Below the pieces are notes generated by a model. The model was not told the origin of the DNA. It searched no databases and saw only the letters and a program-made list of their open reading frames with translations. From a virus, in the IMG/VR virus record IMGVR_UViG_3300045988_171220, positions 1 to 64,000 of that record: a stretch of DNA of 64,000 nucleotides; one strand, written 5' to 3'. Numbering within the stretch: the first letter of the stretch is position 1; every line of letters begins with the position of its first letter. Both the position numbers and the translations under genes were made by a program. Positions 25,873 to 42,475 of the stretch are shown here, piece by piece.

Positions 25873-28280
25873 TGTTCAATACGGCTTACACCGTTCTCCT
25901 TTATTATTTTAAGTGTTTTGCACTTAGCGTTTTCGTTCGAAATATGAGTAGTAACCAAAATAGGATATTGGATAAATTCCAATGCTTCGATCACATCATA
26001 CAGACTTTCTTTTGATAGCCCTTCCGTGATCTCATCAATGGATAGGAATTGCAATCCTCCCCATCTGTTTGTTTCATTTATCATATTCTGGATAGCGATA
26101 ATAAGAGCTATTTCTACTCTTGCACGTTCACCGCCACTGTAGTACCAAAAGTTTTCTGCTTCGTCCCGGACGACATACGGAGTTATTTCTTCTTTGATAT
26201 CTCCGTCCGCTTTTGTCTTAAATCCTTCTATTAAGATACGAAGGTCGCTATTTTCTGCTTTCAGGATATTGTTCGCTCTTGATTGAATATTTTTCAACTG
26301 TTCCAACGCAAGGTACATTTTGAAAGACTTAAACCTGCCGATCCATTCTTTTTTCTTGAATAGAAGGGCATCCAAATCGGAAAGCTCTTTGTCGTATCTG
26401 GCAATCGAAAGCATAATGTCTTTTATTTGCTTTTCCTGCGAAGACATATCCACTTTTGTAGCTTTTTCTTTCTTGATTTCTTTTATCTGTCTTTCGTTGT
26501 TTTTAATATCGATCAAGTTGGATTCAATCTTTTCAGACAAGGTTTTCTTTTTCCTTTCCAAAGAAGAAATAGTGTTCTTGGTGTATTCAATATCGTCATT
26601 GATCTTGTAAAGAGATGTATTGATTTCCTGTGCTGACTGACGAATCTTGTCGATTTCATCTTCTTGCTCGTTTTTCAATTGAATGAAAGACGAAATAAGT
26701 TCTTCATATTCTTTCAAAGATTCATCTAAAGCCTCCATCTCAGAAACAACTTCCTTCTCTTGCTTTCCTATTTTTATCTTTTTCTTTTCTTCCTGTTCCA
26801 GTGTAGTGTCTTTCAGTGTAAGGAATTTGTGCTTACATTTTGGGCAAGTAATCGCACCGGATAAGTTTACAAGGACTTTTCTAAGGGATACTTTCAGTTC
26901 ATCATGAATTTTTGAAAGTTCTTCTTTCATTTCCAGCACTTCATTCTGATTTGCTTTTGTTTCCCCCAATTCCTTTTTAACAGATTCAATCACTTCCTGA
27001 ATTTCTTTGGTAGAAGGAAGTTGGTCTTTCTTCTTTTCTTCTTCTTTCAAAAGAGCTTCCAGTTCTTCCAAAGTGGAATTATTTTCCTTGATACTTTTAT
27101 CTGCACGACCAATTTCATACCGGAAAGAATCAATTTCTTCTTTCAGAGATTTTATTACACTTTCTCTTTTTTCGATACGAGATAGTTTGTCGGATTCAAA
27201 GTCAAAATTGGCAGCATCTTCTATTACCTGTTTTAGTGCCTCTATGCTACCTTCTGCACGATCCTTTTTACTTTGAATAGCAAGTTTTTGAGAAGACAAA
27301 ACATCCAGTTCTTTTTGAATGATGTCTTTTGTCCCATCCAAAAAATCGTAATTGATAAACCGGCTGATAAGAGCCAGCTTATCCGTATTGGAGCTTTTAA
27401 AGAACGATTTGTAGTATTCCTTACAAATAAGGAAATAGCTTTTCAAATCTTCCGGAGAAATAGCAATCCAAGAAAGGATATAGTTATTCCCATCTTTTAC
27501 GGTAGCAAGTTCTACCGGTTTGCCGTTCAAAGACACATTCAGTTTGCTGCTCCCTTTTAAGGGCAAAATACGCTCGATAGAGAGAGTTTCTTTTCTTATC
27601 GGACACTCTATATCAAGCAACACTTTCGCTTCCTTCTCGCCCCTTCTAATGAGCTTTTTGTCCACACTGCTTCGGTAATTGTTCCCGGTAATGGCAAAAT
27701 AGACAGCTTGCTGCATAGATGAATTGTGAGTAGGAATGTAGTTGTTTGTAACAAACATACCGTCTTCACCGGAAACAGTTATGCACTGTTGTTCTTCTGC
27801 ACCCAAACAAGTAAAGGCAATCATCTTTCGGGAAGGTTTACCCAAACATTCCGGCACTTCAAAAAAGACTTCTTCGTCTTTTGATCTTTCCATGATTTCT
27901 TCAAGCGGGATCACGTACCAGTCTTCATCTTTGTGCAAACGTACTTTCCATAAATGGCTTCTGTTGCATTTGACTTCCGTCCCGTCAGAAAACGTAATCT
28001 TATAAACAACATCAATGTCATGAAAAGGAATAGCCCTTACTACTTGATACCCACCGGAAGGATGAAGAATAACATCTCCTACCTTTATTTCTCTCATTTT
28101 TACAAACCCATTAGGAGTAAGGATGTCTGCATCCATTGTTAAGGCTTTCCCGCTACCATTACTTCCTTGATTGTCGTCTGTTTTATTTAACCCTACAAGT
28201 GCAGTTACCCCATCTTGAAATTCGTATTTAAAGTGTTCGAATGACACGAAATTTGTTGCTTCAATTCTAATCGGCTTCAT
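25869..28280 (-). CDS. Rad50/SbcC-like recombination ATPase, intein-containing
   Basis: Start at MKPIRIE (ATG 28280). Walker A GSNGSGK|S is interrupted by the intein. Long coiled coil with a CPKC zinc hook. Signature SGGERARV. Walker B FLSIDE. Confidence 0.85.
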   Translation of the reverse strand: MKPIRIEATNFVSFEHFKYEFQDGVTALVGLNKTDDNQGSNGSGKALTMDADILTPNGFVKMREIKVGDVILHPSGGYQVVRAIPFHDIDVVYKITFSDGTEVKCNRSHLWKVRLHKDEDWYVIPLEEIMERSKDEEVFFEVPECLGKPSRKMIAFTCLGAEEQQCITVSGEDGMFVTNNYIPTHNSSMQQAVYFAITGNNYRSSVDKKLIRRGEKEAKVLLDIECPIRKETLSIERILPLKGSSKLNVSLNGKPVELATVKDGNNYILSWIAISPEDLKSYFLICKEYYKSFFKSSNTDKLALISRFINYDFLDGTKDIIQKELDVLSSQKLAIQSKKDRAEGSIEALKQVIEDAANFDFESDKLSRIEKRESVIKSLKEEIDSFRYEIGRADKSIKENNSTLEELEALLKEEEKKKDQLPSTKEIQEVIESVKKELGETKANQNEVLEMKEELSKIHDELKVSLRKVLVNLSGAITCPKCKHKFLTLKDTTLEQEEKKKIKIGKQEKEVVSEMEALDESLKEYEELISSFIQLKNEQEDEIDKIRQSAQEINTSLYKINDDIEYTKNTISSLERKKKTLSEKIESNLIDIKNNERQIKEIKKEKATKVDMSSQEKQIKDIMLSIARYDKELSDLDALLFKKKEWIGRFKSFKMYLALEQLKNIQSRANNILKAENSDLRILIEGFKTKADGDIKEEITPYVVRDEAENFWYYSGGERARVEIALIIAIQNMINETNRWGGLQFLSIDEITEGLSKESLYDVIEALEFIQYPILVTTHISNENAKCKTLKIIKENGVSRIEQ
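27723..28145 (-). mobile_element. class 3-type mini-intein (141 aa) after the P-loop lysine
   Basis: Begins ALTMDADILTP (Ala1) and ends IPTHN followed by S(+1). Block B RSHLW gives the Trp, block F QQCITVSG gives the Cys, and THN gives the Thr, forming the W-C-T triplet. Confidence 0.8.
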
Positions 28281-29349
28281 TTTCTTCTTCCTTGTTTTCA
28301 AATGTTGTTTCTTTCTTTCTGAACGTATCAAGAACATCCTTCTTGATTTTCCCAAACAGCTTTGCATCTTCCAAAAGACGTTTTCTTGCTTTCGGGAACC
28401 CGAATCCTATTTTTTCTTCCCCATAGTAGATGTAGGTTCCCCTTTTGGAAAGCACACCCAAATCAAGTCCCATATTTACGATTTCCATCACCTTGTCAAT
28501 CCCTATCCCGAACCGGATAATGATCTGACATGCTTTGAAAGGCGGTGCAACCTTATTTTTCTTACAGGTTATCTTCACCTTGTTGGAAACCTGTGTTTCT
28601 CCTTCCTTTTCAGAACCCACACGGGCAAGCTCGATTCTCTGACTTGCATAGAAAGGAATGGCAAACCCTCCCGGCGTTGTGGTGGCTGCGCCGTATCCGC
28701 CTATGTTAGACCGGATTTGATTGATACAAAAAAGGATACATCCGGTCTGCTTGCAGATGTTCTTCAGAATATTTACTTGGGAGCTTAAAAGACGCGCTGT
28801 AAGTCCTATATGTGCGTCCCCTGCCTCTCCATTCAAAAGAGCGGTAGGAACAAGACCGGCAATGGAGTCAATCACGACAAGTCCGATAGATTCCTCATTG
28901 CACATTTCCTTTGCTATTTCAAGCACTTCTTCTGCGGTAGAAGGTTGGGAAAGGATAAACTTGTCAGGGGACAAATCAATTCCTATTGCTTGCATGTATT
29001 TTGGGTCAACAGCGTTTTCGGTATCAAGATACCCTACTGCTTTCCCTGATTTCTGCATTTCTGTTACCAAGTGAAAAGCAATGCTTGTCTTGCCAGAAGA
29101 AAAACCTCCATAGGCTTCCACAACACGACCTTTTGCCCATCCTCCACCAAGTATTTCATCCAATAAATAAGAACCAGAATGGACGAACTCAACATCTTGC
29201 CTTCTTCCGGCTATAGCATCCTTACCAAAACGATCTTCTATTCTTGAAATAAGATCACCCAAACGATTGGTTTTTTTAGTTTCTGTGGATTGTTCTTCTG
29301 TTATCGTCTGGGTTTCTTCTATCTTTTTAGTTTCCTTTTTCTTCGCCAT
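28267..29349 (-). CDS. recA: RecA/UvsX-type recombinase
   Basis: Motifs LDEILGGGWAKGRVVEAYGGFSSGKTS (Walker A) and LVVIDSIAGL (Walker B), with RecA-like L1/L2 context. Confidence 0.9.
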   Translation of the reverse strand: MAKKKETKKIEETQTITEEQSTETKKTNRLGDLISRIEDRFGKDAIAGRRQDVEFVHSGSYLLDEILGGGWAKGRVVEAYGGFSSGKTSIAFHLVTEMQKSGKAVGYLDTENAVDPKYMQAIGIDLSPDKFILSQPSTAEEVLEIAKEMCNEESIGLVVIDSIAGLVPTALLNGEAGDAHIGLTARLLSSQVNILKNICKQTGCILFCINQIRSNIGGYGAATTTPGGFAIPFYASQRIELARVGSEKEGETQVSNKVKITCKKNKVAPPFKACQIIIRFGIGIDKVMEIVNMGLDLGVLSKRGTYIYYGEEKIGFGFPKARKRLLEDAKLFGKIKKDVLDTFRKKETTFENKEEENEAD

Positions 29350-30382
29350 AAAGCAGTTTGTTTAATATTTCCTTTCCTTCTTTTTCGTCATATCCGTTTT
29401 CTTTGCAGAAAGACGAAAATCTGTCTTCTATATCTTTTGCTTCCAAAGTCTTTACCTCTACAGTAGGAGCAAGGACTTCTTTTATTTCAATTTCCTTGAA
29501 TTTCTTTTTGATGTCCACACCTTCTTTTGTAAAAGCATCTTTATCAAAAGCATCAAGTGAAGATTGTTCTCCCCAAACCTCTACTCTTACACGAGCGGTA
29601 GGATTCTCTTTCTTGAACTTGTTAATAAGTGCCACCGCTTGTTTGTGAGGAGTTTCCTCCAAGTCGATTTCCAGTTTTTTGAATACTGTTCCTTTTGTGG
29701 AAGGAATGAGGTCAACCTCCAAATCAGAATCTAGAAGCCAGAAACCCTTCTTTTCATCTTCCCCAAAATTGTTCTGCTGGACACTTCCCAAATGGTAAAT
29801 GTTACTGCCTACACGCTGGTAATTGTGATAGTGTCCCAAATACACTTTTTTAAACATCTCGAACATGGAAGGCTTTAGTTCACTTTTTACTTCTGTACCG
29901 TCCATGTTCTTGCTACCAGTTACGGCAAAATGCCCGAATAGGATGTTTTTCTTTCTCTTGTCCCCGATTTCCGCTAATTCATCAAGCAAAATATCATCAG
30001 TGAAAAACGGCAAGAAAAAACAATAAACACCTTCTATTTGCATACCGTCCAATTCTTCCACCAAAGTAAAAGAAGGATGATGTTTAAAGGCTGTAAGAAA
30101 TGACTTTTGACTTGAATAGGATGTTTTGTCATGATTACCGGGAATACAAATTATTTGATGCCCGTTTTCATCATACGCTTCCAATATTTCGTGAAGTGTA
30201 GAAAGACACACTTCCCTTTGAGATACCCTGTTGTCAAAAACATCACCCAGCCAGATATGGGTTTTGATACCCTTTTTGCTGGCTATTTCCATTTCTTCCA
30301 TCAAAATGTCTTTTATAGTAGAAGCGTTTCCCTCTGACAGATGATGATCAGTCGAGATGATAGCTAAATATTTTTTACCCAT
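29327..30382 (-). CDS. Mre11/SbcD-like nuclease (metallophosphoesterase)
   Basis: Motifs ISTDHH, WLGDVFDN, IPGNHD, FGHFAV and LGHYHN in canonical order. Confidence 0.85.
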   Translation of the reverse strand: MGKKYLAIISTDHHLSEGNASTIKDILMEEMEIASKKGIKTHIWLGDVFDNRVSQREVCLSTLHEILEAYDENGHQIICIPGNHDKTSYSSQKSFLTAFKHHPSFTLVEELDGMQIEGVYCFFLPFFTDDILLDELAEIGDKRKKNILFGHFAVTGSKNMDGTEVKSELKPSMFEMFKKVYLGHYHNYQRVGSNIYHLGSVQQNNFGEDEKKGFWLLDSDLEVDLIPSTKGTVFKKLEIDLEETPHKQAVALINKFKKENPTARVRVEVWGEQSSLDAFDKDAFTKEGVDIKKKFKEIEIKEVLAPTVEVKTLEAKDIEDRFSSFCKENGYDEKEGKEILNKLLYGEEKGN

Positions 30383-30403
30383 GTTTGTTTTGTTAGAAAG
30401 GAA

Positions 30404-30425
30404 GGGGACTGTATTTCAAGTCCCC
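30404..30425 (-). terminator. stem-loop between the SSB-like and Mre11-like genes
   Basis: GGGGACT (30404-30410) pairs with AGTCCCC (30419-30425). T-rich on the minus strand afterwards. Confidence 0.4.
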
Positions 30426-30465
30426 AAACCAAATTAGAAAAAATATGAAAACTAAAAAGAAGAAA

Positions 30466-31860
30466 TTATTTCTTTTTCATTTTGTCTTTCAGAGCTTGCA
30501 ATCTTGCTTTAGCTTTTAAAAGTTCTTCGTCCTTGTCCGTAGCATTTTCGTCAATAGGAGATTCTTCTTTGGGTTCTTCCTTATTTTCCGGTTCGGATGC
30601 CGTTTCTGTGGAAGTTTCATCTTCTTCCGGGAAAGGAAGCGCCTCACCAGCTTGTGCCAAATCATACCAAGAACGAACCTCTGCTATCGTCAGATCGTCC
30701 GGCAGTTCAGCTTCCGGATACTCTTCCCCAATATACTCTTCCAAGAACTTTTTCATCTTTGAAAGGGGAGGGTAGGAAGCGACTTTTGCTGCTTTTTCTT
30801 TTGCCGGTGCACTTGCCGGATTCTCTCTCGGAGCAGATTTTTCTTCTTCCTCATCTTCGTTTTCCGGTTCTTCCGCTTTCTTTGACTTAGAAGTGGATTT
30901 TGTCTTTTTGGGAGCTTCATCTTCCCCCTCATCGTCTTTGCTACCCTCTTCCGGGATCAATGCAGCCATCTCCTCTATTTCAGTAAGGAAGCCATCATCA
31001 GCAAAAATATCGTATCCGTTTTCTTCGTCAAAACGCTTCAACCCGTCAAGAGCCATATTGAAATCTTTCTGTGAATAAACATCCTTGTAGATTTCTTCCA
31101 GCGTAGGAACTTCATTCAAGAAATATTCCATGTCTTCATCAGGAATAGCAGTTTCTTCAAAGAACTCATCCCAAGATTGTCCTTTTTTCGGAACGCCGGC
31201 AGACAAAGAATAGGTTTTCTTTCCTTTATCATCTTCTCCCATTGTGATCACAAGCGGGTACGCTCCTTCCAATTGAGAGAAGATATCAAAAGAAACCGTT
31301 TCATCGTCCGACATTTCAACCGAAATTTCCTTTATGCGGTTCATCCATGTTCCATACAATTGCAAACGGGCAAAGTCTTTCGAACCCTGATATACATAGC
31401 AAACATACGCCAAAGATGGATTGATACCCCATACAAACTTGTTTCCCTTTTTATACCCCATAATAGGATTGAGGAATTTTCTGCGCTCTGCTTCATCCTG
31501 ATATTCTTCGGAAGCCTTTTTTCTCACGTAGTCGCAGTACAGGACAATAGGGTCTTTTCCTTTCAAAAGGTTCTTTCCGTGAATGTCGGCGCAGAAAACA
31601 TTCTTATCTTTTACTTCTTTACCGGTCACCTTGCCATTCGCATCATAAGTAGGCACTTCTACACGCAATTTGGACATTTTACAGGCCACATAAGCCTTGC
31701 CCATTGCCGGGACAACGCGGAATACATTTTTTCCTTTCTGAACAGTCGCAAAGCCTGTATAGCTCTTACCGCCTTTGTACATTGTTTTTTCAGCTTGCTT
31801 TACTTCCGCTTCTACATCTTCAATTGATTGCTTCTTGAACTTCGATCTGTCAAATTTCAT
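30466..31860 (-). CDS. possible ssDNA-binding protein (gp32-like) with long acidic low-complexity C-terminus
   Basis: N-terminal GKNVFRVVPA resembles the gp32 RFLP strand. The C-terminal third is E/D/K-rich. Its position beside RecA/Mre11/Rad50 fits. Assignment is weak. Confidence 0.4.
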   Translation of the reverse strand: MKFDRSKFKKQSIEDVEAEVKQAEKTMYKGGKSYTGFATVQKGKNVFRVVPAMGKAYVACKMSKLRVEVPTYDANGKVTGKEVKDKNVFCADIHGKNLLKGKDPIVLYCDYVRKKASEEYQDEAERRKFLNPIMGYKKGNKFVWGINPSLAYVCYVYQGSKDFARLQLYGTWMNRIKEISVEMSDDETVSFDIFSQLEGAYPLVITMGEDDKGKKTYSLSAGVPKKGQSWDEFFEETAIPDEDMEYFLNEVPTLEEIYKDVYSQKDFNMALDGLKRFDEENGYDIFADDGFLTEIEEMAALIPEEGSKDDEGEDEAPKKTKSTSKSKKAEEPENEDEEEEKSAPRENPASAPAKEKAAKVASYPPLSKMKKFLEEYIGEEYPEAELPDDLTIAEVRSWYDLAQAGEALPFPEEDETSTETASEPENKEEPKEESPIDENATDKDEELLKAKARLQALKDKMKKK

Positions 31861-31895
31861 AATTCTTTTAATTTAATTGATTGATAAATAAATTG

Positions 31896-32177
31896 TTATT
31901 TCTCTTTTACCTGTTTTAAGAACACTTCAATAATCTGTTTTTGTTCTTTTTCAAACATACCCACAAACTCTTTAAAAGAAACGGGTTTATTTGCCTTGTC
32001 TTCTACCTCAAAATAGGGCACTCTTTCAGCAACTCCCTTTAAGTCTATACCATAGGCTTCTGCTGTTTCATACTGCTTACCCGTTTCCTTTGCTGTTCTG
32101 ATTCTGTACAAATCCCATAGAAACGGTGCATTCGTACATTGAATGATTTTAAATTCTTCCGTTAGCTTAATTTCCAT
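31896..32177 (-). CDS. hypothetical protein (93 aa)
   Basis: ORF in the operon. Confidence 0.5.
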   Translation of the reverse strand: MEIKLTEEFKIIQCTNAPFLWDLYRIRTAKETGKQYETAEAYGIDLKGVAERVPYFEVEDKANKPVSFKEFVGMFEKEQKQIIEVFLKQVKEK

Positions 32178-32178
32178 A

Positions 32179-32709
32179 CTATTTCTCTTTGATGATTAAA
32201 AATGTGTTGATCTCACCTTCTACCAAATTGTCCAGAAATTCTTCCGGTGTCACCTTCGGAACCAACCCTGTCAATTTCTTGTCCTTTGACTGTAAAGCCC
32301 AATAGAGACTATCTATTTCCGCCAAATGCTTTTTCTTTTTGACCAAATCTTTTTGCATGGCATGTAGCTCCGGGTTGATTGTCAAAATATCATCCAAAGA
32401 ACTTTCCGTAAGTTTCACAAGTCCTATGTCTTCCACTTTAACCTTTCCACCGTTTACAATAGATTCACGTCTTATCTGTGTAGCAAGTTGTGCTTTATAG
32501 ACATTAAATTCCACTTTTGCAGATTCATACTCTGATTCTGCTTGTGCTCTAAGAAGCCCTACTTTGTTCAACAGGACGGAACAAGTGGCGATTTCCCCAT
32601 ACAAATTTGCATGGTCTATGGAAGTCACCGCATCCATGTCCAATTCGTTTTTCAAATCATTGGAGAGTAAAACTATTACTTTATCTCCAATATTCCTTAC
32701 AAGTTTCAT
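32179..32709 (-). CDS. hypothetical protein (176 aa)
   Basis: ORF abutting the polymerase gene. Confidence 0.55.
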   Translation of the reverse strand: MKLVRNIGDKVIVLLSNDLKNELDMDAVTSIDHANLYGEIATCSVLLNKVGLLRAQAESEYESAKVEFNVYKAQLATQIRRESIVNGGKVKVEDIGLVKLTESSLDDILTINPELHAMQKDLVKKKKHLAEIDSLYWALQSKDKKLTGLVPKVTPEEFLDNLVEGEINTFLIIKEK

Positions 32710-35600
32710 ACTCCAAGTTTTATAAATTTACTGTTACTGTTTACTTGCAATACATATTCTTCTTTAAACTTGTCAAAGTTAGCCTTTCCACTTAGAAGAA
32801 GGATGCTTTTCTTTGAAGATATAAAGAAGTCTGCGTTCTCCTCGTAATCGTCCGGGAAAATAACCACACGAAGGAATTTGTAATTGCTTTCAAGCAAAAG
32901 ATTGGCAAACCGCCCTTTCCTTCCTTCTCTTTCTTCCACTTCCAAAACATAACCACCTACCATAACCATTTCATAGGTCGATCCGTCATAGTTTTGCAAA
33001 TCTTCCACATTGTAAAAAACCCCATTTCTAACTTTTGGTTTTAGGTATTCCCTTACCAATCCTTCGTAGTCAAAGAAAGCAAAACCGGACTTGTTCTTTT
33101 GTTGTAAAAGCCACCACCAATCCTTTGCAATCTTTTTCTTTTCAAAGGCAAGAAAATATTCATCCTTTTCTTTGTCAATTTTGATCTTGTTCTTTTCCCG
33201 ATACTTTCCAAGCATGAACTCCCTTGCAGAAAAGATATTGGAAAATTCCCTTGTTTCATCCATCATATCGAACGCACCGGAATAAATAAGATTTTCAATA
33301 ACGGATTTGTTCACTGCCGATCCTTTGAACGTGTGACGGTCTATAAATTCAGCCAAAGAAAAATACTCCCCATTCTTAGAACGTTCTTCCATAATCTGAT
33401 TCTGTGCCTTTTCTCCTACTTGTTTTGTTGCATTGATCGCCCAATAGATGCTATTATCTTTTTTGTCCGCCACAATGTTTATATCAGACTTGTTGATATT
33501 TACAGGTTTAATCTCTATCCCTTCTGTCTGTTGCATTTCATTGACGTATTGGGGAAAGTCATCTTCACTTGCACGGGACAAAGCAACCGACCAAAATTCC
33601 AAAGGATAATGTACTTTCAACCACAAAGAATTATAAGCATTAATAGCGTAACTTGCTGAATGACTATTGCAAGTTATAATCCCTTGATCTGTGCAAAAAT
33701 TATGATTAGGATCATCTATTTCCACATCATAAACATTCTCTGTTTTATCTGGCTCAATACTTACTATTTTCGACAAAGCAGATGGGTATCCTTTCTCACC
33801 TCTTTTCATCCTACCAAATTCACGATAATGAATTTTCTTATGACAAGAAGGACAGATAGCAATAAGGTTTTCATCTTCATTATTTCTTCTATTCCCGTCT
33901 ACATGATGAATTTCCAATCTGCCTTCTTTTCCACAATTTTTACAAATTCCAAACCCACCATTTTTCTCTCTAAAAGATTCAAACTTAGAAGATTCCCCAT
34001 TTGTTTTTATAAAACCCATATGTCCTTTTTTGGAATTTAAAGATTCCGGATTGTATTTACTCCAATTTTTACCTCTCATATCGGTAAAATTGTATCGCTG
34101 ACTATCCGTTTTCTCATATGGCATTTGCACGTACAAACTATCTTCTCCTACTCTCAAATCCTTACACATAACCTTACCTCTTTGAGTAGGGAATTTATGG
34201 TTGTCTGTTACGGATACAAAACGACCATCCTCTAAAGTTATTTTATAAGTTTGCTTTACCCCAGCAAATCTAATATCTTTAATTTTTCGATCTCTTATAC
34301 GTCCATCTTTACACATAGTAAGACAGCTTCCGTAACCAACTCTCAAATATTTGCCCCTAAGAGGAATCCAATTGTTTGCTTTCGCAAATGCAAGATCATT
34401 CTTAACCAAATACATTTCCTCGATAGTAGGCTGTCTTTTGTTTTTGGGACAAGAATTTCTTAAAATTCTGTAACTACCTGATATACAGCGGTTAAAAGCA
34501 TACAAACCAAATTTTTCCATCTGTTTCCAGAGTGCTTCTGCGCTTTCTTTCGTTACCCCTTTTGAAGCAAATCTTTTTACATACCCATCCACAAATTTAG
34601 GATGAATTTTCTCTACTTTGTCCTTCTTTTTCTTTGCAATTGCAGCACGGGCAACATCTGCTTCTTCTTCCGAAAACCCAGCAAGAACTTGCACCATTTT
34701 AAGAATTTGTTCTTGGTACACCATAGAGGAATAAGTATCTTTCAAAATTTCTTCTGCTCCAATGGGGTATTCTGGCTCTTTTTCTCCATTTTTCAAAGCA
34801 ATGTAGTCCATGTGAAAACCATTTTCCATTGGCCCCGGACGGAACAAGGAAAGTGCTGCCACTACATCATCCATGTTTTTAGGCTTCAATTTTTGCGTAT
34901 AGGCTGATAACCCTTTTGCTGAAAACTGAAATATATCACTAAGCCAGCCATTTGCAAAATACCTGTAAACCTCTGGATCATCATATTCTATATCAGAATA
35001 GAGATTGATTTTCCTACCCGTATTCTTTTCAATCAGATTCAGAATATCAGTGAATTTGTCCAATTGCTCAATACCAAGAATATCTTCTTTCAAAAAACCG
35101 GCTTCGTCCATCTCTCCACCTTCCCATTCACTGACAATCAAATCACCCGATTTTCTAACCGGACACCATTCATACATTGACTTTTCTTTTGGAAAGATCA
35201 TCATAGCACAAGCATGAATAGAAGCTGCCTTTTGTTGTCCAAGAAGAAGAAAAACAATGTTCATCATTTCTGGATATTTATTCAGAAATTGATTTACTTC
35301 TGACTTCTTGCAAGCAAGTTTCAAAAAATCTTCTTCTGTCTTTACATCTTCTATCATTTTGGTAAGCCTCCTAAGAGTAGGAATTGAAGCTCCATAAATC
35401 TTTCCTACATCATTTATAGCCTGTTTTATCTGCAAAGTGGTATATGTACCCACAGAACAAACTTGCGAAGCTCCAAAACGATTTTCCATGTATTGTTTTA
35501 CTGCCGGTCGGTATTCTCCCGGCACATCCGTATCAATGTCTAACGCTCCCCCTTGTCCGAAAACAAGGGGGAAATTGATCGGGGAGCGATCCCGGTACAA
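32706..35600 (-). CDS. dnaE: DNA polymerase III alpha (DnaE-type), C-terminal fragment, intein-containing
   Basis: Contains LDIDTD (catalytic Asp pair), SIHACAMMI, AFNR|SHSASYA (interrupted by the intein) and a C-terminal OB-fold-like region. The only available start is TTG at 35600, preceded by GAGGTGGAG. Confidence 0.8.
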   Translation of the reverse strand: MYRDRSPINFPLVFGQGGALDIDTDVPGEYRPAVKQYMENRFGASQVCSVGTYTTLQIKQAINDVGKIYGASIPTLRRLTKMIEDVKTEEDFLKLACKKSEVNQFLNKYPEMMNIVFLLLGQQKAASIHACAMMIFPKEKSMYEWCPVRKSGDLIVSEWEGGEMDEAGFLKEDILGIEQLDKFTDILNLIEKNTGRKINLYSDIEYDDPEVYRYFANGWLSDIFQFSAKGLSAYTQKLKPKNMDDVVAALSLFRPGPMENGFHMDYIALKNGEKEPEYPIGAEEILKDTYSSMVYQEQILKMVQVLAGFSEEEADVARAAIAKKKKDKVEKIHPKFVDGYVKRFASKGVTKESAEALWKQMEKFGLYAFNRCISGSYRILRNSCPKNKRQPTIEEMYLVKNDLAFAKANNWIPLRGKYLRVGYGSCLTMCKDGRIRDRKIKDIRFAGVKQTYKITLEDGRFVSVTDNHKFPTQRGKVMCKDLRVGEDSLYVQMPYEKTDSQRYNFTDMRGKNWSKYNPESLNSKKGHMGFIKTNGESSKFESFREKNGGFGICKNCGKEGRLEIHHVDGNRRNNEDENLIAICPSCHKKIHYREFGRMKRGEKGYPSALSKIVSIEPDKTENVYDVEIDDPNHNFCTDQGIITCNSHSASYAINAYNSLWLKVHYPLEFWSVALSRASEDDFPQYVNEMQQTEGIEIKPVNINKSDINIVADKKDNSIYWAINATKQVGEKAQNQIMEERSKNGEYFSLAEFIDRHTFKGSAVNKSVIENLIYSGAFDMMDETREFSNIFSAREFMLGKYREKNKIKIDKEKDEYFLAFEKKKIAKDWWWLLQQKNKSGFAFFDYEGLVREYLKPKVRNGVFYNVEDLQNYDGSTYEMVMVGGYVLEVEEREGRKGRFANLLLESNYKFLRVVIFPDDYEENADFFISSKKSILLLSGKANFDKFKEEYVLQVNSNSKFIKLGV
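33666..34487 (-). mobile_element. class 1 intein (274 aa) with HNH endonuclease domain in dnaE
   Basis: Begins CISGSY after AFNR and ends GIITCN followed by S(+1)HSASYA. Block B is VTDNH. HNH module CKNCGKEGRLEIHHVDGNRRNNEDENLIAICPSCHKKIH. Confidence 0.8.
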
Positions 35601-35795
35601 ATCGCTCCACCTCTATTTCTTTAATTTTTTCTATTTTCATATTCTTGTTACTTGATATTAGACTAAAATATCATCTCCTACTTTCAATGCTTTAGTTGTT
35701 ATATTGATAGGAAGGACTTTCTTTGTTCCATCTTCAAGAGTTACTTCGTACATCTTTTTCTTTTCGAAATGTCCTAATCGTCCTCTTGTCAAAAA
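35535..35795 (-). other. intervening segment splitting dnaE (stop-rich spacer, two GC hairpins, flanking imperfect direct repeat)
   Basis: Direct-repeat copies at 35768-35795 and 35535-35563. Hairpins at 35583-35608 and 35548-35571. Four in-frame stops lie between 35660 and 35613. Confidence 0.6.
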
Positions 35796-37208
35796 TCTTT
35801 CAAAAAGTAAGTTAAACTTCAAAGGATGTGTATTTATGATACCAAAAAGGTAAGAAATTAAAGAACCGCTTGCACTTCCGCGACCTGCACCTAACAAAAT
35901 GTTATTTTCTTTGCACCAATTTACAATATCGCGCAAGATCAAAAAGTAATCCACAACATCGCCAAACTTAATGATCTTAGATTCTCTTTCGATCCTTTCC
36001 ACAAGCACATCTTCCGAGTAATCTTCCAAAAGTTCCGGTTTGTTCTCCAATCCTTCATAAATCAAAGAATCAAACATATCTTCATTGGAAGTGTACTTTT
36101 TCTTTTCCTCTTCCGTCATTTCATAACGGGGAAGATGCCGGCTGTCAGTAGGAATTTCAAAGTTGCAGCTTTCTGCAATCATATCAGCATTGCTTCTTGC
36201 TATCATATAAAACTCTTCCCCCTTCTCACTATCCCCAAATAAAGAAAGAAGTTCTTCCATATAAGTCGCTTCATCTTTGAAATACTGATTACCAGATTTG
36301 TAGTTTACTTTCCCGTCAATCTTATTTACTACTTCTCGAAGTATGGCGTATTCTGGCTCGATATAATAAGCATCGAAAATGGCTATGGGCTTCATTTTGG
36401 ACTTATAGAACTTTTCAAAGTTCATCAAGTAGGAAGTGTCCCTATCGTTTTTTGTGTATTTCACAGTATCAACCTGCCAAAACACATTAGGTTTGTTTTT
36501 TAAAAGGATAGGAACATCTTCAAACTGTATCGTTTTCGGATCAAATACGATATACACATCTGAAACATGTTCCGACATATCTTTTGGGGAAACGAACTTT
36601 CCATTATCACCACAGTTCAAAATCTTGTTTAATGCAAGTAGATGCTGCCAGCCTTTTTCATTCTTTGCATAGATTTTGTAAGTATAGACAATATCCTTCT
36701 TTTCATCCTTTACCGGAATTTCCAGACCAAACACAGGGATGATTCCTTCTGCCTTGCAGGCATTCTGAAATTTGAGCGCACCTGCCAAAGTTGCTTTTTC
36801 AGCAATCCCCAGTCTTTCTATCCCTAAGAATTTGGCTTTCTTTACCCAATCTGGATACAATCCCGTACCATTCAAAAGTTCAAACGATCCGTGCACTCCC
36901 AAGAAATTAGTAGAAAGACCTGCCATTTCACTTTGTCCTCTCCATTTTACCCGATTAAGTTTAGGCTCGTTTTCCTTCCCTTTGTCCAATGTGTACCATA
37001 CACCGCCAAGGCGGAAGATATAACCATCTTCTTCAGTGCGTTCACAATCCCAACGAAAATCCTCTGAAAAGAAATATCCGTCCTCGTTAGGTTCAAAGAC
37101 TTCGTATGATTTCCCCTCAAAGGAAACAGTGTAATTTTCCTTATCAAGAGAGTATTGTATAGTATTGGAAGAAAGATATTCTTCCAACTCATTTAAAAGT
37201 CGATCCAT
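35658..37208 (-). CDS. dnaE: DNA polymerase III alpha (DnaE-type), N-terminal fragment (PHP domain to the FERFL motif)
   Basis: PHP-like VHGSFELLNG...AEKATLAG. GAGRGSASGSLISYLFGI and LLFERFL motifs. The last roughly 39 residues do not resemble DnaE. Confidence 0.85.
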   Translation of the reverse strand: MDRLLNELEEYLSSNTIQYSLDKENYTVSFEGKSYEVFEPNEDGYFFSEDFRWDCERTEEDGYIFRLGGVWYTLDKGKENEPKLNRVKWRGQSEMAGLSTNFLGVHGSFELLNGTGLYPDWVKKAKFLGIERLGIAEKATLAGALKFQNACKAEGIIPVFGLEIPVKDEKKDIVYTYKIYAKNEKGWQHLLALNKILNCGDNGKFVSPKDMSEHVSDVYIVFDPKTIQFEDVPILLKNKPNVFWQVDTVKYTKNDRDTSYLMNFEKFYKSKMKPIAIFDAYYIEPEYAILREVVNKIDGKVNYKSGNQYFKDEATYMEELLSLFGDSEKGEEFYMIARSNADMIAESCNFEIPTDSRHLPRYEMTEEEKKKYTSNEDMFDSLIYEGLENKPELLEDYSEDVLVERIERESKIIKFGDVVDYFLILRDIVNWCKENNILLGAGRGSASGSLISYLFGIINTHPLKFNLLFERFLTRGRLGHFEKKKMYEVTLEDGTKKVLPINITTKALKVGDDILV

Positions 37209-37236
37209 CGTATTTTCTTCTTTTCGTTTTCACAGA

Positions 37237-37262
37237 CAAACATACAACTTTTGTATGCAATT
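37237..37262 (-). promoter_or_regulatory. palindromic promoter-like motif (class 2)
   Basis: The minus strand reads GCATACAAAAGTTGTATGTTTG. Dyad CATACAA-N3-TTGTATG (37241-37257) overlaps TATGTTTG (TAnnTTTG, 37244-37237). It lies 29 nt upstream of the dnaE start. Confidence 0.45.
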
Positions 37263-37294
37263 ATTGTATGTTTTTACAATCCTTAACCCTGCTT

Positions 37295-37843
37295 TTAACC
37301 TAAGTTTATTCGTGTATTTAAAACACTTTTGATAAACTTCAATCGGTTAAAAGGAGTATCGTTTGGTATCACTTCATAAGGTAATTTTCTTTCTATCAAA
37401 AACTTCCTTATTTCTGCATCCCAACATTTTCTTCTCTCTGCATCTGCCATTCTTTCCCCATCATTTTCTACATCCCAATAAATAGGGAAATAAAAGATAA
37501 TAGGAAGAAAATATTCACTAACGTTTATAAAATCCAATTGTCTTTTCAATTCTGCGTCTCTTTGAATAGAAGCAGGAATTGTTTTCGTAAACGTATGCAC
37601 GTCTATTATGCTTCTATCGGAAACATAGCAATCTGTGTTCAGCAATTCCGCATACTTATCAAAAATCAGTTTTTGATTTTGAACAGAAGTAAAGGAAGGT
37701 TCTATCTTCCCTTCCTTTACTAATTGTCTTGTTATGCTATCTATCTTATCGAACCGGTCAAACGACCTGTCTTTCTTTAAAAGTTCAAACACAGAAGTCT
37801 TTCCGACACAAGAAGCACCCAAAAAAGTTATAGCCCTAACCAT
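37295..37843 (-). CDS. P-loop kinase/NTPase (AAA_28/NadR-kinase-like or dNMP-kinase-like)
   Basis: Walker A GASCVGKT at residue 8. Small size. DRS...D motif. Confidence 0.5.
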   Translation of the reverse strand: MVRAITFLGASCVGKTSVFELLKKDRSFDRFDKIDSITRQLVKEGKIEPSFTSVQNQKLIFDKYAELLNTDCYVSDRSIIDVHTFTKTIPASIQRDAELKRQLDFINVSEYFLPIIFYFPIYWDVENDGERMADAERRKCWDAEIRKFLIERKLPYEVIPNDTPFNRLKFIKSVLNTRINLG

Positions 37844-38385
37844 TACCGATTATCTCCGTCACCGTGAATTTTGTTTTCTGCCTTTCTCTTTGCCAGCTTT
37901 TCCACATTCTGCTTTGCAATGGAAATCAAAGACTGGTTCGATTCCTTTCCTTCAATGTAGACAACAAGATTCTGCAATCCCACAAGAATCTGTTCCAATG
38001 CGGTATGACAAAGTTCTTTTCTCTTTTCGGGGAAAGGTTTGCTGTAATCATCGTCCCGGAAGTATTTCTTCACTTGACCGTTAATGATACCTACCTGTTG
38101 GAGCAAATAGGAGGGACTTAATCTGTACACATCCGTATCATCCAATTTGTGTAATTCTTCGGGGAACTCAACCGGCGGCAATTGCAATTCCTGTCTTGTC
38201 ATTGCGACATACCAAAGGACATCTCCTATTTCTTTCATGATTTCCTTTGCTTCGGCAGCATTATCCACCTTTTCAAAAACTTCTGCCAATTCATTGGTAA
38301 GTCCCATTACCACATACGAGATAGCTACCTCTTTTGCATAACACGCTGTCGAAGCCGCGTGCGCTTCATACTCTTTAAAAGTCAT
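37843..38385 (-). CDS. MazG-like nucleotide pyrophosphohydrolase
   Basis: GLTNELAEVFEK...EIGDVLWYV matches the MazG EExxE...D helix pair. Confidence 0.6.
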   Translation of the reverse strand: MTFKEYEAHAASTACYAKEVAISYVVMGLTNELAEVFEKVDNAAEAKEIMKEIGDVLWYVAMTRQELQLPPVEFPEELHKLDDTDVYRLSPSYLLQQVGIINGQVKKYFRDDDYSKPFPEKRKELCHTALEQILVGLQNLVVYIEGKESNQSLISIAKQNVEKLAKRKAENKIHGDGDNR

Positions 38386-38409
38386 AATACGAAATTTAAA
38401 TTAATTGAT

Positions 38410-38898
38410 TTAAAACAACTTACCATCAAAACACATGATAAGCCTTTTTATTTTGATGTTTGAATATTCCACATCTTTTTTCTTTCCGTTCACCTTAATG
38501 GTAATTGTTTGGTTCTTTATATCGTTCTTCAAAATCCGACACTCCTTCTCATCATAAATGACAACCTGATCCTTTCCAAGTAAATAGATCATATCCCAAA
38601 ACCACTGTGAGTTTCTTTTCTGCTCATTGGTGGAATACTGGAAATTAGGAATGCCAGTAGGATTCAAGAACTCTTTCTCGTAGAAAGAAAAGTATTCTTC
38701 CACCGAAAAGAAAATAGACCGTTTAAAATGTCTTTTTGCCAACAACTCGATCCGTTCCTTTTTAAACTCTGCAATATCATTTGCCATCTTGACAAATTCC
38801 GGCTTATCAAAAATAAGGCTTCTTACCTTGTGGGTAAAGTATTCCAATTGGAGCACTTTCAAATATTCGTCTATCGACAATTCTCTGCTTCTATCCAT
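38410..38898 (-). CDS. hypothetical protein (162 aa)
   Basis: ORF in the operon. Confidence 0.55.
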   Translation of the reverse strand: MDRSRELSIDEYLKVLQLEYFTHKVRSLIFDKPEFVKMANDIAEFKKERIELLAKRHFKRSIFFSVEEYFSFYEKEFLNPTGIPNFQYSTNEQKRNSQWFWDMIYLLGKDQVVIYDEKECRILKNDIKNQTITIKVNGKKKDVEYSNIKIKRLIMCFDGKLF

Positions 38899-38940
38899 CT
38901 GATCTTATGATTTGTAGTTTTCAACAAAAGTAGGAATAAC

Positions 38941-39945
38941 CTACCACATTTTCTTGATTTTAGAGACGTAAAAATTAATAGGATCATATAAGTTACTTAA
39001 CACATCGTCCAGATAATCTATATCCATATCTCCCGGATCAATACCGGGCTTATAAAGATAAGCTATCTTGGTATTGAATGTTTTTGCAAGCATTAGTCCT
39101 GCACTTTTGGATTCTTCAACAGTTGCATCATCATACATCAAGATCACATTCTCTACCCCTTTTCTTTCCAAATAGGATATTTGTTCCTTGCTTATACTAT
39201 TTCCAAAAGTAAACACACACTTCAAATCCCTGCAATCCCAAAGTTTTAAAAGATTGTCTATACCTACCTTGTCAAACAATCCTTCTACTATTATCACATC
39301 CTTTACAGTAGGAGAAAGCTCATTGTAGCCACCTAATATTTTTGTAAAGTTCGTGCCTATACTGTTTTCGTATCGTAAATGTGGCTTAGTACCGGTTTCC
39401 TTTGCCCTTTCCAAATCTCTTTTATGCCACTCTTTGGAATATCTGCTTCTGCCGAGCCACCCTACCAACTTATCGTCCATTTTCATTTTGAAGATGATAT
39501 AGTTTTTCAAATCCTTCTCTAAAATAGATTTGGTTTCAGAAGGTTCAAAAAGTGCGTAATGATACGCTCTAAACCCTCTTTCGTCTAAATAAGGGTCAGA
39601 TTTCAGTCTTTCAAGACGAAGGGGAAGTTTTACTTCCGGCAATTCTTCAGACACATCTTCATCCACATCATCTTTCAAAGGTGTAAGTTTTACACTTAAT
39701 GAATTTTGATATTCCATCCGTATAAGATCTTTCCTTCCTATCTTGTCCAGGAAATCCTTCAATGGTTTTTTACTACCACATTTCCAACAGTGAAACACAC
39801 CGCCGTGAGGATTCAAAAGAACACCCCATTTCTTCGATTTTCCACAATAGGGACAATCCATGTTTTTATTGGAGAGCCACCCCTGCGAACCGAATATGCG
39901 AAGTCCAATCGCTGCCTTTACTTCTTCTTCGTCTATCCGTATCAT
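38941..39945 (-). CDS. DNA primase (zinc finger plus TOPRIM)
   Basis: CPYCGKS...HCWKCGS zinc ribbon. TOPRIM motifs IIVEGLFDKV and ILMYDDAT. The start is taken at MIRIDEE, 5 nt after the helicase stop. Confidence 0.75.
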   Translation of the reverse strand: MIRIDEEEVKAAIGLRIFGSQGWLSNKNMDCPYCGKSKKWGVLLNPHGGVFHCWKCGSKKPLKDFLDKIGRKDLIRMEYQNSLSVKLTPLKDDVDEDVSEELPEVKLPLRLERLKSDPYLDERGFRAYHYALFEPSETKSILEKDLKNYIIFKMKMDDKLVGWLGRSRYSKEWHKRDLERAKETGTKPHLRYENSIGTNFTKILGGYNELSPTVKDVIIVEGLFDKVGIDNLLKLWDCRDLKCVFTFGNSISKEQISYLERKGVENVILMYDDATVEESKSAGLMLAKTFNTKIAYLYKPGIDPGDMDIDYLDDVLSNLYDPINFYVSKIKKMW

Positions 39946-39949
39946 AAGC

Positions 39950-42475
39950 CTAAATGCTTTCCATTTTATCTGCTTGCACCTTTTTTCTGCGAGCTTGTTT
40001 CTTTTCTTCTTTCCTTTCGGAAACTTGATTATACATTTCCATCGTTCGCCCCCTGTGATAGAATCGTCTTTTGTCATAATTGGTAGCAATCGTGATCACT
40101 TCTTGACTTTCCTTGTAATCACGGAGCTTATCGACATAAATACGGGCTGTTGCGTTTGCTTTTTCCTCTATTGTCATGTTCAGAGTAAACACGAAAGAAA
40201 AAGGTTTTACAAGCGTTTTATCACCTTCCGTATAAGAGCGGTCGATCACCTTGTCTGGGTTGTTCCATACTTCAAACGGAACATCACTTGTCTGTGTGGC
40301 TGTAATAATAGGAGCACCTATTTCATCAGCCAAGTTCTTTAATAACTGGGCACACGTCTGTAACTTTTCTTTCTTGTGGTCGGGGTCGGAATCAATCTTT
40401 TTGGATATGCCGGTTTTTACCAAATCCAAAGAATCGAGTATCACCAATCCGGGAAACTTGCCATGTGTATTAAAATAGTCATAACAAAGTTGCCTAACAT
40501 CACTCATGGAAGCCTGCCCGAACTTTTTGAATCCATACACTTCAATGTCAGAACTAAGTTCCTTTACCTCTTTGATAGCTTGTTCTATCTTCTTTCTATC
40601 CTTTGGACTGATATTGCCGGATTTGATATCGGAATAGGATTGGGCAGACCATAATTGATCGTATATTTGCATACAGGCTTTGACTCCACCTTCCAACTGG
40701 ATATGAAGAACTGGCACACCTCTAATAGCAGCAGAATACCCATGCCATTTTAATACAGTCGTATTGTGAGTGACGATAAAATCGTTCGTCAGAAAAAGAC
40801 CTTCTTCTCCTGATACTTTTATACACTGCATCTCTTTTACGCCAATGTATTCAACAGACACTATCCTTCTCTCAACAAAATTCTTTTTCTTTGGATTTAC
40901 CTCTCTTTCGTGTTTCCTTGAAAGATGAAATAAATTTAACCCTTTAGGGGGTGTAATTCTTAATCTATATCTGTATTTACAGATAACCTTCTCTCTCCTT
41001 TTGTTTACATAAGAAGCTCTTTTTGGTTCTGAAACCCTACAGAGACATCCTAATGATCTTGCAATAAAAGTAGCATCATCTATCAACTGTTTAGAAGATA
41101 GAGAAAGTTCTATTTGTCCTGTTTTTTCAACATACCCATCAGTATCTAAAAGTCCTCTAAGAATTTCCAGACGAACTTCTTTACTATTGAAAATATAATC
41201 TTTTGGAATAAACTTTTCGTGAGAAAGTTTCCCAAAAAGTCCGTATTTTTCTAAATAATATCGGAAATTATGCTCACTTTCCTCTTTGTTAACCCTATAT
41301 CCAAATCTTGCTACATACTTTAAACACATCTGTTCGGGAAACTTTAGCCTTTCTCTAATTTCATCATCTGGCAATGTTACAGTTAAACCACCAGCTTTAG
41401 CAGAAAAACACCCATCACCTAAAAGAACTCCCAATGTATAGGGATCAATAGAGACTTCTTTTTCTCCAAAATCAATACCTTCCACCAATGGTATAGAAAA
41501 ACGAGGACGCGGATGAGAACCGTATCTTACAATATTATTTTTAGTAAGGTATTTTTGCCCGTTATGATGCCCTCCAAATTTGACGCCCTTCTCCATTATT
41601 TCCGACAAAGGAACAGTAAAATGACACTTCTTTTCACTTTTACAATCCCTTATCGTCCAAAGATGATCTTTGCTACAATCAACAAAACTTCCATCTGCAA
41701 AAGTTACACGATACGTTTTCTTTCTTCCTTGTGGATATACCCCAACTATTGTTTGAGTACCGCCTTTTCTATCACAAATAATATCTCCTACCTTAGCATC
41801 TTTCATCAAAATATAACCAGTAGGAGTGAGAATTTTGCTGTCCAAAGTCAACGCTTTACCCGTACCGCTTCGAGCAATCCAAAGGGACGTGTCCCCCATC
41901 TCCATACCGCCAAAAGAAACATCATCCAATCTGTCTATTCCAAAAGGTACTTTTATAGGCTTTTCAACGATCATATCGCTTTCCATGCGTCTTTCTACCA
42001 TCCGTTCATGAAAACCTCCAAAAACAGACTGAAAACCGCCTGATTTGGAACGAAACGACATTTCCAATATCCTTTGGGATTCTTCAGCATTGACACGTAT
42101 TGCTTCTTCCTTCTTCCCTTCTTCGTACAAGTCATGTACTTTTCTTGAAAGAAGTTCAAATTCTGTTTCTTTGACAAAAGACTGTAATTGGTCTATTGCA
42201 ATTTCCCTGTCTATCAAAGCCGCCTTCTTTATTTCCTTTGCCGCATCTTGCACAACATCTTCATCAGCAAATTTCTGACAAATAGCACCAATAGAAGGTA
42301 GCTTATTCTTTTCTGTATATTGTATGATCGCTTCCCTAAGAATGAATTTATAACCCGACCATTCTTTAGGAATCAATTCATATTTCAAATATTCCGAAGC
42401 TATACGCATTATGACTTCATCAGAAAACATCAATTTAAAGATTTCCGCCATGAAGCCGGGATTCAGTTTGCCCAT
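39950..42475 (-). CDS. DnaB-like replicative helicase, intein-containing
   Basis: Walker A ARSGTGK|TT is interrupted by the intein. Walker B LVILDSLD. ITATQTS motif. Confidence 0.8.
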   Translation of the reverse strand: MGKLNPGFMAEIFKLMFSDEVIMRIASEYLKYELIPKEWSGYKFILREAIIQYTEKNKLPSIGAICQKFADEDVVQDAAKEIKKAALIDREIAIDQLQSFVKETEFELLSRKVHDLYEEGKKEEAIRVNAEESQRILEMSFRSKSGGFQSVFGGFHERMVERRMESDMIVEKPIKVPFGIDRLDDVSFGGMEMGDTSLWIARSGTGKALTLDSKILTPTGYILMKDAKVGDIICDRKGGTQTIVGVYPQGRKKTYRVTFADGSFVDCSKDHLWTIRDCKSEKKCHFTVPLSEIMEKGVKFGGHHNGQKYLTKNNIVRYGSHPRPRFSIPLVEGIDFGEKEVSIDPYTLGVLLGDGCFSAKAGGLTVTLPDDEIRERLKFPEQMCLKYVARFGYRVNKEESEHNFRYYLEKYGLFGKLSHEKFIPKDYIFNSKEVRLEILRGLLDTDGYVEKTGQIELSLSSKQLIDDATFIARSLGCLCRVSEPKRASYVNKRREKVICKYRYRLRITPPKGLNLFHLSRKHEREVNPKKKNFVERRIVSVEYIGVKEMQCIKVSGEEGLFLTNDFIVTHNTTVLKWHGYSAAIRGVPVLHIQLEGGVKACMQIYDQLWSAQSYSDIKSGNISPKDRKKIEQAIKEVKELSSDIEVYGFKKFGQASMSDVRQLCYDYFNTHGKFPGLVILDSLDLVKTGISKKIDSDPDHKKEKLQTCAQLLKNLADEIGAPIITATQTSDVPFEVWNNPDKVIDRSYTEGDKTLVKPFSFVFTLNMTIEEKANATARIYVDKLRDYKESQEVITIATNYDKRRFYHRGRTMEMYNQVSERKEEKKQARRKKVQADKMESI
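40763..41854 (-). mobile_element. class 3-type intein (364 aa) with LAGLIDADG endonuclease after the P-loop lysine
   Basis: Begins ALTLDSKILTP (Ala1) and ends FIVTHN followed by T(+1). KDHLW gives the Trp, MQCIKVSG the Cys and THN the Thr. LAGLIDADG-like motifs LGVLLGDGC and LRGLLDTDGY. Confidence 0.8.

Follow-up and report, generated by a model that had tools for sequence, protein, structure and literature searches.

We analysed a 64,000-nucleotide stretch of viral DNA (positions 1 to 64,000 of IMG/VR record IMGVR_UViG_3300045988_171220, called the window below), which is part of a roughly 100-kb human-gut phage. Two of its genes, one for an SbcC/Rad50-like ATPase and one for a DnaB-like replicative helicase, are each interrupted by an intein within the Walker A motif, and the phage is intein-rich, with at least five inteins in the window. 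The DNA is ~92% identical to two fecal 'Bacteriophage sp.' scaffolds, MT835601 and MT835760, both unannotated, each of which holds both inteins at the SbcC and DnaB sites. The related IMG/VR contigs number more than 60 and are 80-108 kb in size, and extein homologues known from cultured phages suggest that the group belongs with phages of Bacteroidota.

Two ATPase genes interrupted at the same Walker A position

All features described in this section lie on the minus strand, and a vertical bar marks a splice junction. The SbcC/Rad50-like ABC-type ATPase gene (25869..28280) encodes a precursor of 803 amino acids (aa), 662 aa once spliced. The open reading frame (ORF) spans 25869..28367; orthologues of 803 aa begin MKP(I/V), and the true start is probably the MKPIR at 28280. 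The gene hosts a class 3 mini-intein of 141 aa without endonuclease (27723..28145, ORF residues 75-215), whose junctions read GSNGSGK|ALTMDADIL...NNYIPTHN|SSMQQ and which is flanked by the codons of the Walker A Lys (28146-28148) and of Ser+1 (27720-27722). The spliced protein matches PHROG 77 (SbcC-like subunit; 7e-47) and Pfam SMC_N, and a Pfam search of the unspliced ORF gave no match whatever. When the spliced SbcC sequence was used for searching, the relatives with at least 79% identity all had, if complete, 803 aa and the mini-intein, and those with 63% identity or less were mostly ~660 aa long and intein-free, with the junction GSNGSGK|SSIQQ or alike. The boundaries of the mini-intein are fixed, because these intein-free alleles of about 660 aa read GSGK|SS. 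At the identical SbcC site, three further clusters of 1020-1029 aa (P0175, P0188 and P0203) have a LAGLIDADG intein of 361-363 aa.

The DnaB-like replicative helicase gene (39950..42475) encodes an 841-aa precursor, 477 aa once spliced, and the spliced protein matches Pfam DnaB_C (1e-11) and PHROG 19 (3e-43). Its insert is a class 3 intein of 364 aa with a LAGLIDADG homing endonuclease (40763..41854, ORF residues 208-571). It has the junctions ARSGTGK|ALTLDSKIL...NDFIVTHN|TTVLKW and lies between the codons of the Walker A Lys (41855-41857) and of Thr+1 (40760-40762). The endonuclease domain extends approximately over 40880..41482, as judged from Pfam and from alignment to PI-PfuI (1dq3); both of its Pfam matches are above the cut-off (PF14528, 1.8e-8; PF05204, 4e-6), and its LAGLIDADG motifs read LLGDG (41411-41425) and LLDTDG (41135-41152). 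A search with the spliced DnaB sequence returned 350 matches, the best 120 of which are all 477 aa long, intein-free and 95-99% identical to the query, with the empty junction ARSGTGK|TTVLKW in 44 of these 120. The boundaries of the DnaB intein are proven, since the 120 homologues have exactly the predicted ligated length of 477 aa.

An earlier, sequence-only reading of the window had delimited both inteins, and its coordinates and sequences turned out to be exact when the ORFs, junctions and key codons were verified. It had also placed both inserts at one Walker A point, between the Lys and the Ser/Thr, with which the empty alleles agree, and had distinguished a mini-intein from a LAGLIDADG intein, a distinction borne out by the presence of PF14528 and PF05204 in the DnaB intein and the lack of an endonuclease in the other. 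It had called the two hosts unrelated; both are P-loop NTPases, one of the ABC/SMC type and one of the RecA type, so they are not strictly unrelated. In-silico splicing restores the GxxxxGK[ST] motif in both proteins (GSNGSGK|SS and ARSGTGK|TT), and intein-free homologues read alike. As the +1 residue is the Ser/Thr of Walker A, neither ATPase has an intact P-loop before splicing; with the loop split, the precursors should therefore be ATPase-dead.

Class 3 signature and predicted splicing pathway

Class 3 inteins are defined by the lack of an N-terminal nucleophile, by a Trp-Cys-Thr (W-C-T) triplet and by Thr or Ser at +1 (PMC2807308), and the sequences of both inteins show all three features. 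Both start with Ala1, hence have no Cys, Ser or Thr nucleophile at residue 1. Both have a Trp at block B position 12 (B12), two residues past the His at B10, within His64-Leu65-Trp66 (27948..27956 in the mini-intein, with the W66 codon at 27948-27950; 41657..41665 in the DnaB intein, with the W66 codon at 41657-41659). Position 4 of block F (F4) is a Cys, the predicted initiating nucleophile, namely Cys121 of the mini-intein (27783..27785) and Cys344 of the DnaB intein (40823..40825). The Thr at block G position 5 (G5) is followed by the terminal His-Asn, as Thr139-His140-Asn141 (27723..27731) in the mini-intein and Thr362-His363-Asn364 (40763..40771) in the DnaB intein; the C-termini of the two read PTHN and VTHN, respectively. 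The +1 residue is Ser in SbcC and Thr in DnaB. The codons of these blocks were checked.

The positions were assigned by alignment to the M. smegmatis DnaBi1 intein (6bs8), the structure paper of which identified its counterparts as the W-C-T triplet and the catalytic cysteine (PMC6195587). The mini-intein H64-L-W66 aligns with H65-Q-W67, Cys121 with Cys118 and PTHN with P-T137-H-N, and Cys344 of the DnaB intein likewise aligns with the catalytic Cys118. The class 3 assignment that the sequence-only reading had made from Ala1 and the triplet is thus upheld for both inteins, their residues aligning with W67, C118 and T137 of 6bs8. Searches of the PDB with phmmer gave E-values of 1e-9 to 1e-13 against solved intein splicing domains, and the structures that both inteins match are gp41-1 (6qaz, 6riz) and the mycobacterial DnaB inteins 6bs8 (M. 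smegmatis DnaBi1), 6rix and 6riy (M. chimaera DnaB1). None of the Pfam Hint models scored above threshold on the Hint part of either class 3 intein. An AlphaFold (AF2) model of the mini-intein, with a predicted local distance difference test score (pLDDT) of 68, retrieved 6bs8 as the top Foldseek match, followed by 6riz and 6riy, and the top 40 were exclusively inteins and Hedgehog domains. Besides the catalytic Cys121, Cys60 and Cys100 of the mini-intein are conserved; in Msm DnaBi1, a disulfide with a regulatory role is known to form.

In the predicted pathway, the block F Cys (C121 or C344) would attack the peptide bond between Lys(-1) and Ala1 to give a thioester branched intermediate, with His64 and Trp66 of block B and the Thr of block G positioning this Cys. 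The hydroxyl of Ser+1 or Thr+1 would receive the N-extein, the terminal Asn would cyclise with the help of the penultimate His and thereby release the intein, and an O-to-N acyl shift would yield an intact GxxGxGK[S/T].

A large family and its characterised members

A word-indexed protein search with the mini-intein returned 3 matches only, and an exhaustive search of representative proteins was used instead. This HMMER search of 1.84 billion representative proteins gave 7,332 matches at E <= 1e-3, and the family counts that follow were drawn from the 149 proteins that are the best of these 7,332 matches. They contain 222 Hint N-domains, 218 of which have Trp at B12, and the F4 Cys and G5 Thr are present in 178/178 family members with both ends identified. 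Among these Hint domains, 150 start with Ala, 131 stand directly after 'GK', and the +1 residue is T, S or C. All 149 proteins carry W-C-T inteins, mostly at GxGK|A, and the hosts of the related inteins, a variety of P-loop ATPases, include DnaB, PhoH, AAA+ proteins, superfamily 2 (SF2) and SNF2 helicases, RecA and terminases. As a side observation, W-C-T inteins occur in twos or threes in many metagenomic ATPases (P0005, P0019, P0029, P0083, P0021, P0031), and in some of these two inteins lie only 3-5 residues apart, within or beside a single P-loop, as in ...THN|TGK|L... or ...THN|CGK|A...

This survey also bears on the splicing route. Ala1 by itself fits class 2, and a conceivable alternative is that Ser/Thr+1 attacks the N-terminal junction directly, in the manner of the class 2 KlbA inteins. 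However, the full W-C-T triplet with Ser/Thr at +1 marks class 3 and does not occur in class 2 (PMC2807308), and the F4 Cys is invariant in the 178 relatives. We therefore regard splicing by a route other than that of class 3 as most improbable.

The two inteins belong to a large and already described kind, class 3 inteins at ATPase P-loops having been known since 2009-2010. Inteins without an N-terminal nucleophile are found mostly in the P-loops of helicases and terminases (PMC2807308), the 'classic' P-loop insertion is the Lys|Thr site (PMC5050341), and an Ala1 class 3 intein at the DnaB P-loop corresponds to the known DnaB-b site (PMC6195587). As for SbcC and Rad50, our literature search found no reported intein in either, and none of the annotated phage genomes in our collection has an intein at the SbcC/Rad50 P-loop, the only genome there that does being the unannotated relative MT835601. 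SbcC/Rad50 thus appears to be an unreported intein host.

The closest characterised systems are the mycobacterial DnaB-b mini-inteins, i.e. M. smegmatis DnaBi1 (6bs8), M. chimaera DnaB1 (6rix, 6riy) and M. leprae DnaB. Like the window pair, they have Ala1 after the Walker A GK, a block B His-x-Trp, a block F Cys, Thr-His-Asn and a P-loop Ser/Thr+1 (PMC6195587, PMC7664689); their host is a DnaB helicase, and they provide the best structural match to our mini-intein. They differ in that identity in the structural alignment is only ~20-25%, in that their host is actinobacterial and not a gut phage, and in block B, which reads DxxH in these inteins and N/SxxH in those of the window. They are also mini-inteins, whereas the window DnaB intein retains its LAGLIDADG endonuclease. 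The sequence-only reading had cited as its example the DnaB intein of mycobacteriophage Bethlehem (MP-Be DnaB), the class 3 prototype. According to the published description, its similarities are W-C-T, Thr+1, the LAGLIDADG domain, the length of about 340-360 aa and the phage DnaB-type helicase host. However, that intein starts with Pro1 and follows the N-extein VSQDQ, and so is not at the Walker A Lys of the P-loop (PMC2807308). A nearer parallel is offered by the DnaBi1 inteins of mycobacteria. Other 'classic' P-loop inteins, those of mycobacteriophage TerL1-a, D. radiodurans Snf2, PhoH and P. horikoshii RadA, share the Lys|Ser/Thr insertion but differ in host gene.

The best PDB sequence match for both window inteins is the gp41-1 split intein of a cyanophage-like gp41 helicase (6qaz; engineered WCT form 6riz), with E-values of 3e-7 to 1e-13. 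It shares with them the Thr at G5, the block B C-x-x-x-H-L and a similar Hint size, but it is a naturally split class 1 intein with Cys1, Phe at B12 and Asp at F4, and grafting W-C-T onto it gave no splicing (PMC7664689). In sequence, gp41-1 (E 3e-7, 1e-10) is nearer to the window class 3 inteins than their mycobacterial class 3 counterparts are (1e-5, 2e-3), and Cys60, four residues before the block B His, is common to the window inteins and gp41-1. The sequence comparisons suggest that class 1 and class 3 members coexist in one Hint subfamily.

Kinship of the two inteins and crossing between genes

The two window inteins are similar far beyond chance, BLASTP aligning them at 41% identity over 90 aa (E 6e-23) and at 50% over 36 aa (E 1e-11). 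In the representative set alone, the DnaB intein is one of many similarly distant relatives of the mini-intein, and the tree left the two unjoined. The representative library lacked the full-length inteins of the SbcC site, which surfaced only via the search with the SbcC extein, and the first tree, built before they were added, made the inteins of the two sites look less closely connected than they are.

These full-length SbcC-site inteins are 51-53% identical to the DnaB-site intein of P0025 over ~360 aa, Hint and endonuclease parts included, and 45-49% identical to the window DnaB intein. The two DnaB-site inteins, from the window and from P0025, are themselves just 51% identical. The next-best intein from any other gene reaches at most 42%, a gap that recurred in an independent IMG/VR profile scan; a scan of IMG/VR with the P0025 intein revealed no close relative of it. 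In a neighbour-joining (NJ) tree of 135 large inteins with 200 bootstrap replicates, the SbcC-site inteins of P0175, P0188 and P0203 and the DnaB-site inteins of the window and P0025 form a clade in 200/200 replicates. Within it, P0025 joins the three SbcC-site inteins in 199/200, and the DnaB-site pair appears in 0/200, so that the inteins do not sort into one clade per site. As the two sites are mixed in the 200/200 clade, the lineage has made at least one crossing between DnaB and SbcC; the direction suggested by the NJ topology is from DnaB to SbcC. There is published precedent for cross-gene transfer in the related class 3 inteins of different ATPases (PMC5050341, PMC2807308), which are 41-55% identical, e.g. 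DnaB-b versus TerL1-c/e (PMC5050341).

As for the mini-intein, its five nearest non-orthologues over 124 splicing-block columns are the same five inteins, in the order P0203 (53.7%), P0175 (50.4%), P0188 (49.6%), P0025 (45.2%) and window DnaB (44.3%). A bootstrap of nearest-neighbour identity, which replaced Hint-only NJ trees that placed the mini-intein, a short and fast-evolving sequence, poorly, returned an SbcC-site intein as the nearest neighbour in 977/1000 replicates, and the HLWKV and QQCITVS motifs are common to the mini-intein and P0203. The most economical reading of these sequences takes the mini-intein for a P0203-like intein of the SbcC site minus its endonuclease.

It is also conceivable that each ATPase obtained its intein separately, out of the wider pool of class 3 inteins at P-loops; the similarity would then be at the family level only. 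Dozens of inteins of PhoH, SNF2, RecA, AAA+ and terminase large subunit (TerL) proteins are 41-44% identical to the mini-intein, nearly as much as the DnaB intein, and a seven-member clade received just 6-19/200 in the Hint-only trees. Nevertheless, the full-length SbcC-site inteins bridge the two, grouping in the 200/200 clade with the DnaB-site inteins, endonuclease included, and being nearest to the mini-intein in 97.7% of bootstraps. We consider independent acquisition unlikely.

Opposite histories of the two copies

The population comparison covered 66 IMG/VR contigs with the SbcC intein and 8 with the DnaB intein. Identity of the mini-intein tracks that of the SbcC extein over the 66 contigs (r = 0.96), with ~95% for the intein versus 92% for the extein in the near sublineage and ~78% versus 75% in the far one, and synonymous divergence (dS) between the SbcC sublineages exceeds 1.5. 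The ratio of non-synonymous to synonymous divergence (dN/dS) of the mini-intein is 0.05-0.08. The mini-intein is fixed, vertically inherited and strongly constrained, as would be expected of an immobile intein whose splicing has to be maintained.

The DnaB intein is present in only 8 contigs, all among the 66 and belonging to both sublineages. In most genomes that carry the SbcC intein, DnaB is uninterrupted, and the DnaB alleles closest to the window exteins lack the intein. Between contigs whose DnaB exteins are 80-82% identical, the intein is 99.5-100% identical; its dN/dS is ~0.15 in the Hint part and ~0.14 in the endonuclease. As read from these sequences, this pattern indirectly suggests recent horizontal spread through homing, driven by an endonuclease that is probably active.

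These data leave little room for the idea that one or both inserts are decayed, non-splicing remnants, with an inactive host ATPase. It could appeal to the lack of an endonuclease in the mini-intein and to the engineered gp41-1_WCT, according to which the triplet alone is no guarantee of splicing (PMC7664689). However, dN/dS values of 0.05-0.16 denote strong purifying selection on both inteins, and the catalytic residues are all conserved, in the 66 contigs for the mini-intein and in the 8 contigs for the DnaB intein. Moreover, the inserts break the Walker A motif of a replicative helicase and of a repair ATPase whose exteins are under strong purifying selection (dN/dS 0.03-0.08 for both host ATPases). 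Of all the explanations that we weighed, decay is the least credible.

The sequence-only reading had proposed that the intein spread between paralogous P-loop sites within one genome. The jump between DnaB and SbcC stands at the level of the lineage, with the 200/200 clade. Given the identities of the DnaB intein relative to its exteins and its patchy presence, spread within one genome is not borne out by the window copies, which are ~44% identical and have opposite histories. Recent self-copying of one intein from one P-loop to the other inside the window genome would account for the identical insertion point, the clear likeness of the N-terminal 90 aa and the common sub-clade. It is already contradicted by the identity of only ~44% across the splicing blocks, by the intein-free DnaB of most genomes with the SbcC intein, and by the mini-intein itself, which has no endonuclease, has co-diverged with SbcC (dS >1.5, r = 0.96) and is nearer to the full-length SbcC-site inteins of other phages than to the window DnaB intein. 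A recent copying event of this kind is very unlikely.

Evolutionary account

We propose, with a probability of roughly 80%, that the two inserts function as class 3 inteins and come from a single large Walker-A-loop family, with a jump across genes and opposite histories. The LAGLIDADG members of one sub-clade would occupy the DnaB and SbcC P-loops in roughly 100-kb human-gut phages, with at least one past crossing from one gene to the other. The SbcC copy would be an old derivative that lost its endonuclease and then became fixed and vertically inherited under purifying selection. The DnaB copy would have kept its endonuclease under purifying selection and homed recently between diverged phages, so as to be present in only some genomes.

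Several points weigh against this account. The splicing mechanism is taken by homology from Msm DnaBi1 and MP-Be DnaB, which have been characterised; for both window inteins, splicing and the branched intermediate are predicted. The quality of the AlphaFold model is moderate, with a pLDDT of 68 and a template modelling (TM) score of about 0.5. All trees are neighbour-joining trees on short alignments, and in the Hint-only NJ tree the clade of all SbcC-site inteins received 56/200, compared with 63/200 for a rival grouping with the mini-intein P0064. The comparison set was picked by similarity to the mini-intein, so any nearer kin that the DnaB intein has in other genes may have escaped it. Finally, the reconstituted SbcC and DnaB DNA targets are identical at 13/24 positions, as compared with 12-14/24 for comparisons with the TerL P-loop, and have just generic P-loop codons in common. 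The GC content of inteins and exteins was uninformative.

The endonuclease domain is conserved throughout the five-member LAGLIDADG clade. It is tempting to speculate that this enzyme still tolerates both P-loop-coding targets, those of DnaB and SbcC, although we hold this to be doubtful.

Other genes and mobile elements of the window

The SbcC-like gene has as neighbours an SbcD-like nuclease gene (29327..30382) and a RecA gene. A third intein occupies the same Walker A position in the terminase large subunit (ORF 42489-44588; intein 43785-44189, minus strand), with the junctions SRGSGK|CNII...VCHN|SYMW. It is a class 1 mini-intein of 135 aa with Cys1 (Pfam Hom_end_hint, 1e-20), and no similarity to the two class 3 inteins was detectable. 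A fourth, of class 1 and 274 aa with an HNH endonuclease, lies at 33666-34487 (minus strand) in the DNA polymerase III alpha ORF (32706-35600), with the junctions FNR|CISG...ITCN|SHSA. This intein varies between close relatives, since its HNH stretch (residues 493-607) is unaligned in the 92%-identical relative L001. The fifth is a class 1 intein of 359 aa with a LAGLIDADG_2 domain, at 16768-17844 (minus strand) in a UvrD-like helicase ORF (15937-18492), where it sits in the Walker B/DExx box (VVMMDE|CFVGD...IVAHN|CQDS).

The DnaE gene is split at 35540-35720, with a gap at 35601-35657 between the ORFs 35658-37208 and 32706-35600. The interruption falls between ERFLTRGR and ALDIDTD and adds ~73 in-frame codons; this stretch has four stop codons and a TTG start with its Shine-Dalgarno sequence, and two strong hairpins lie in it. 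DnaE is uninterrupted (FERFLNKGRVLSSLPDIDTD) in 37/66 related contigs, and about 21/66 have the same insert. Larger inserts exist elsewhere, one in L091 with a GIY-YIG-like ORF and a different one in L118; the latter contig also has a HEARO/IscB RNA. An Rfam search for a group I intron at the split DnaE gave no intron match, and a split intein was ruled out, the insert being too short. It is probably the scar or the small intron of a mobile element. Elsewhere in the window, the Rfam RNA motif DUF805b was found at 12950-12984 (minus strand; 52 bits, gathering score 35.6).

Significance

As P-loop class 3 inteins have long been known, our finding changes no concept, and its value is modest. The crossing of a single intein lineage from one ATPase gene to a different one is well supported. 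In addition, one genome displays, in an unusually clean manner, two stages of the intein life cycle, with a fixed, vertically inherited mini-intein on the one hand and a sporadic, probably still homing intein on the other. The 141-aa class 3 mini-intein, a close relative of the class 1 intein gp41-1, could interest protein engineers and be of use in studies on the interconversion of splicing classes. If the clade's endonuclease did tolerate both targets, these phages would represent a natural system of homing endonuclease retargeting between non-homologous genes, in which the empty, full-length and endonuclease-less alleles have all been sampled and could be used to learn how intein endonucleases switch genes.

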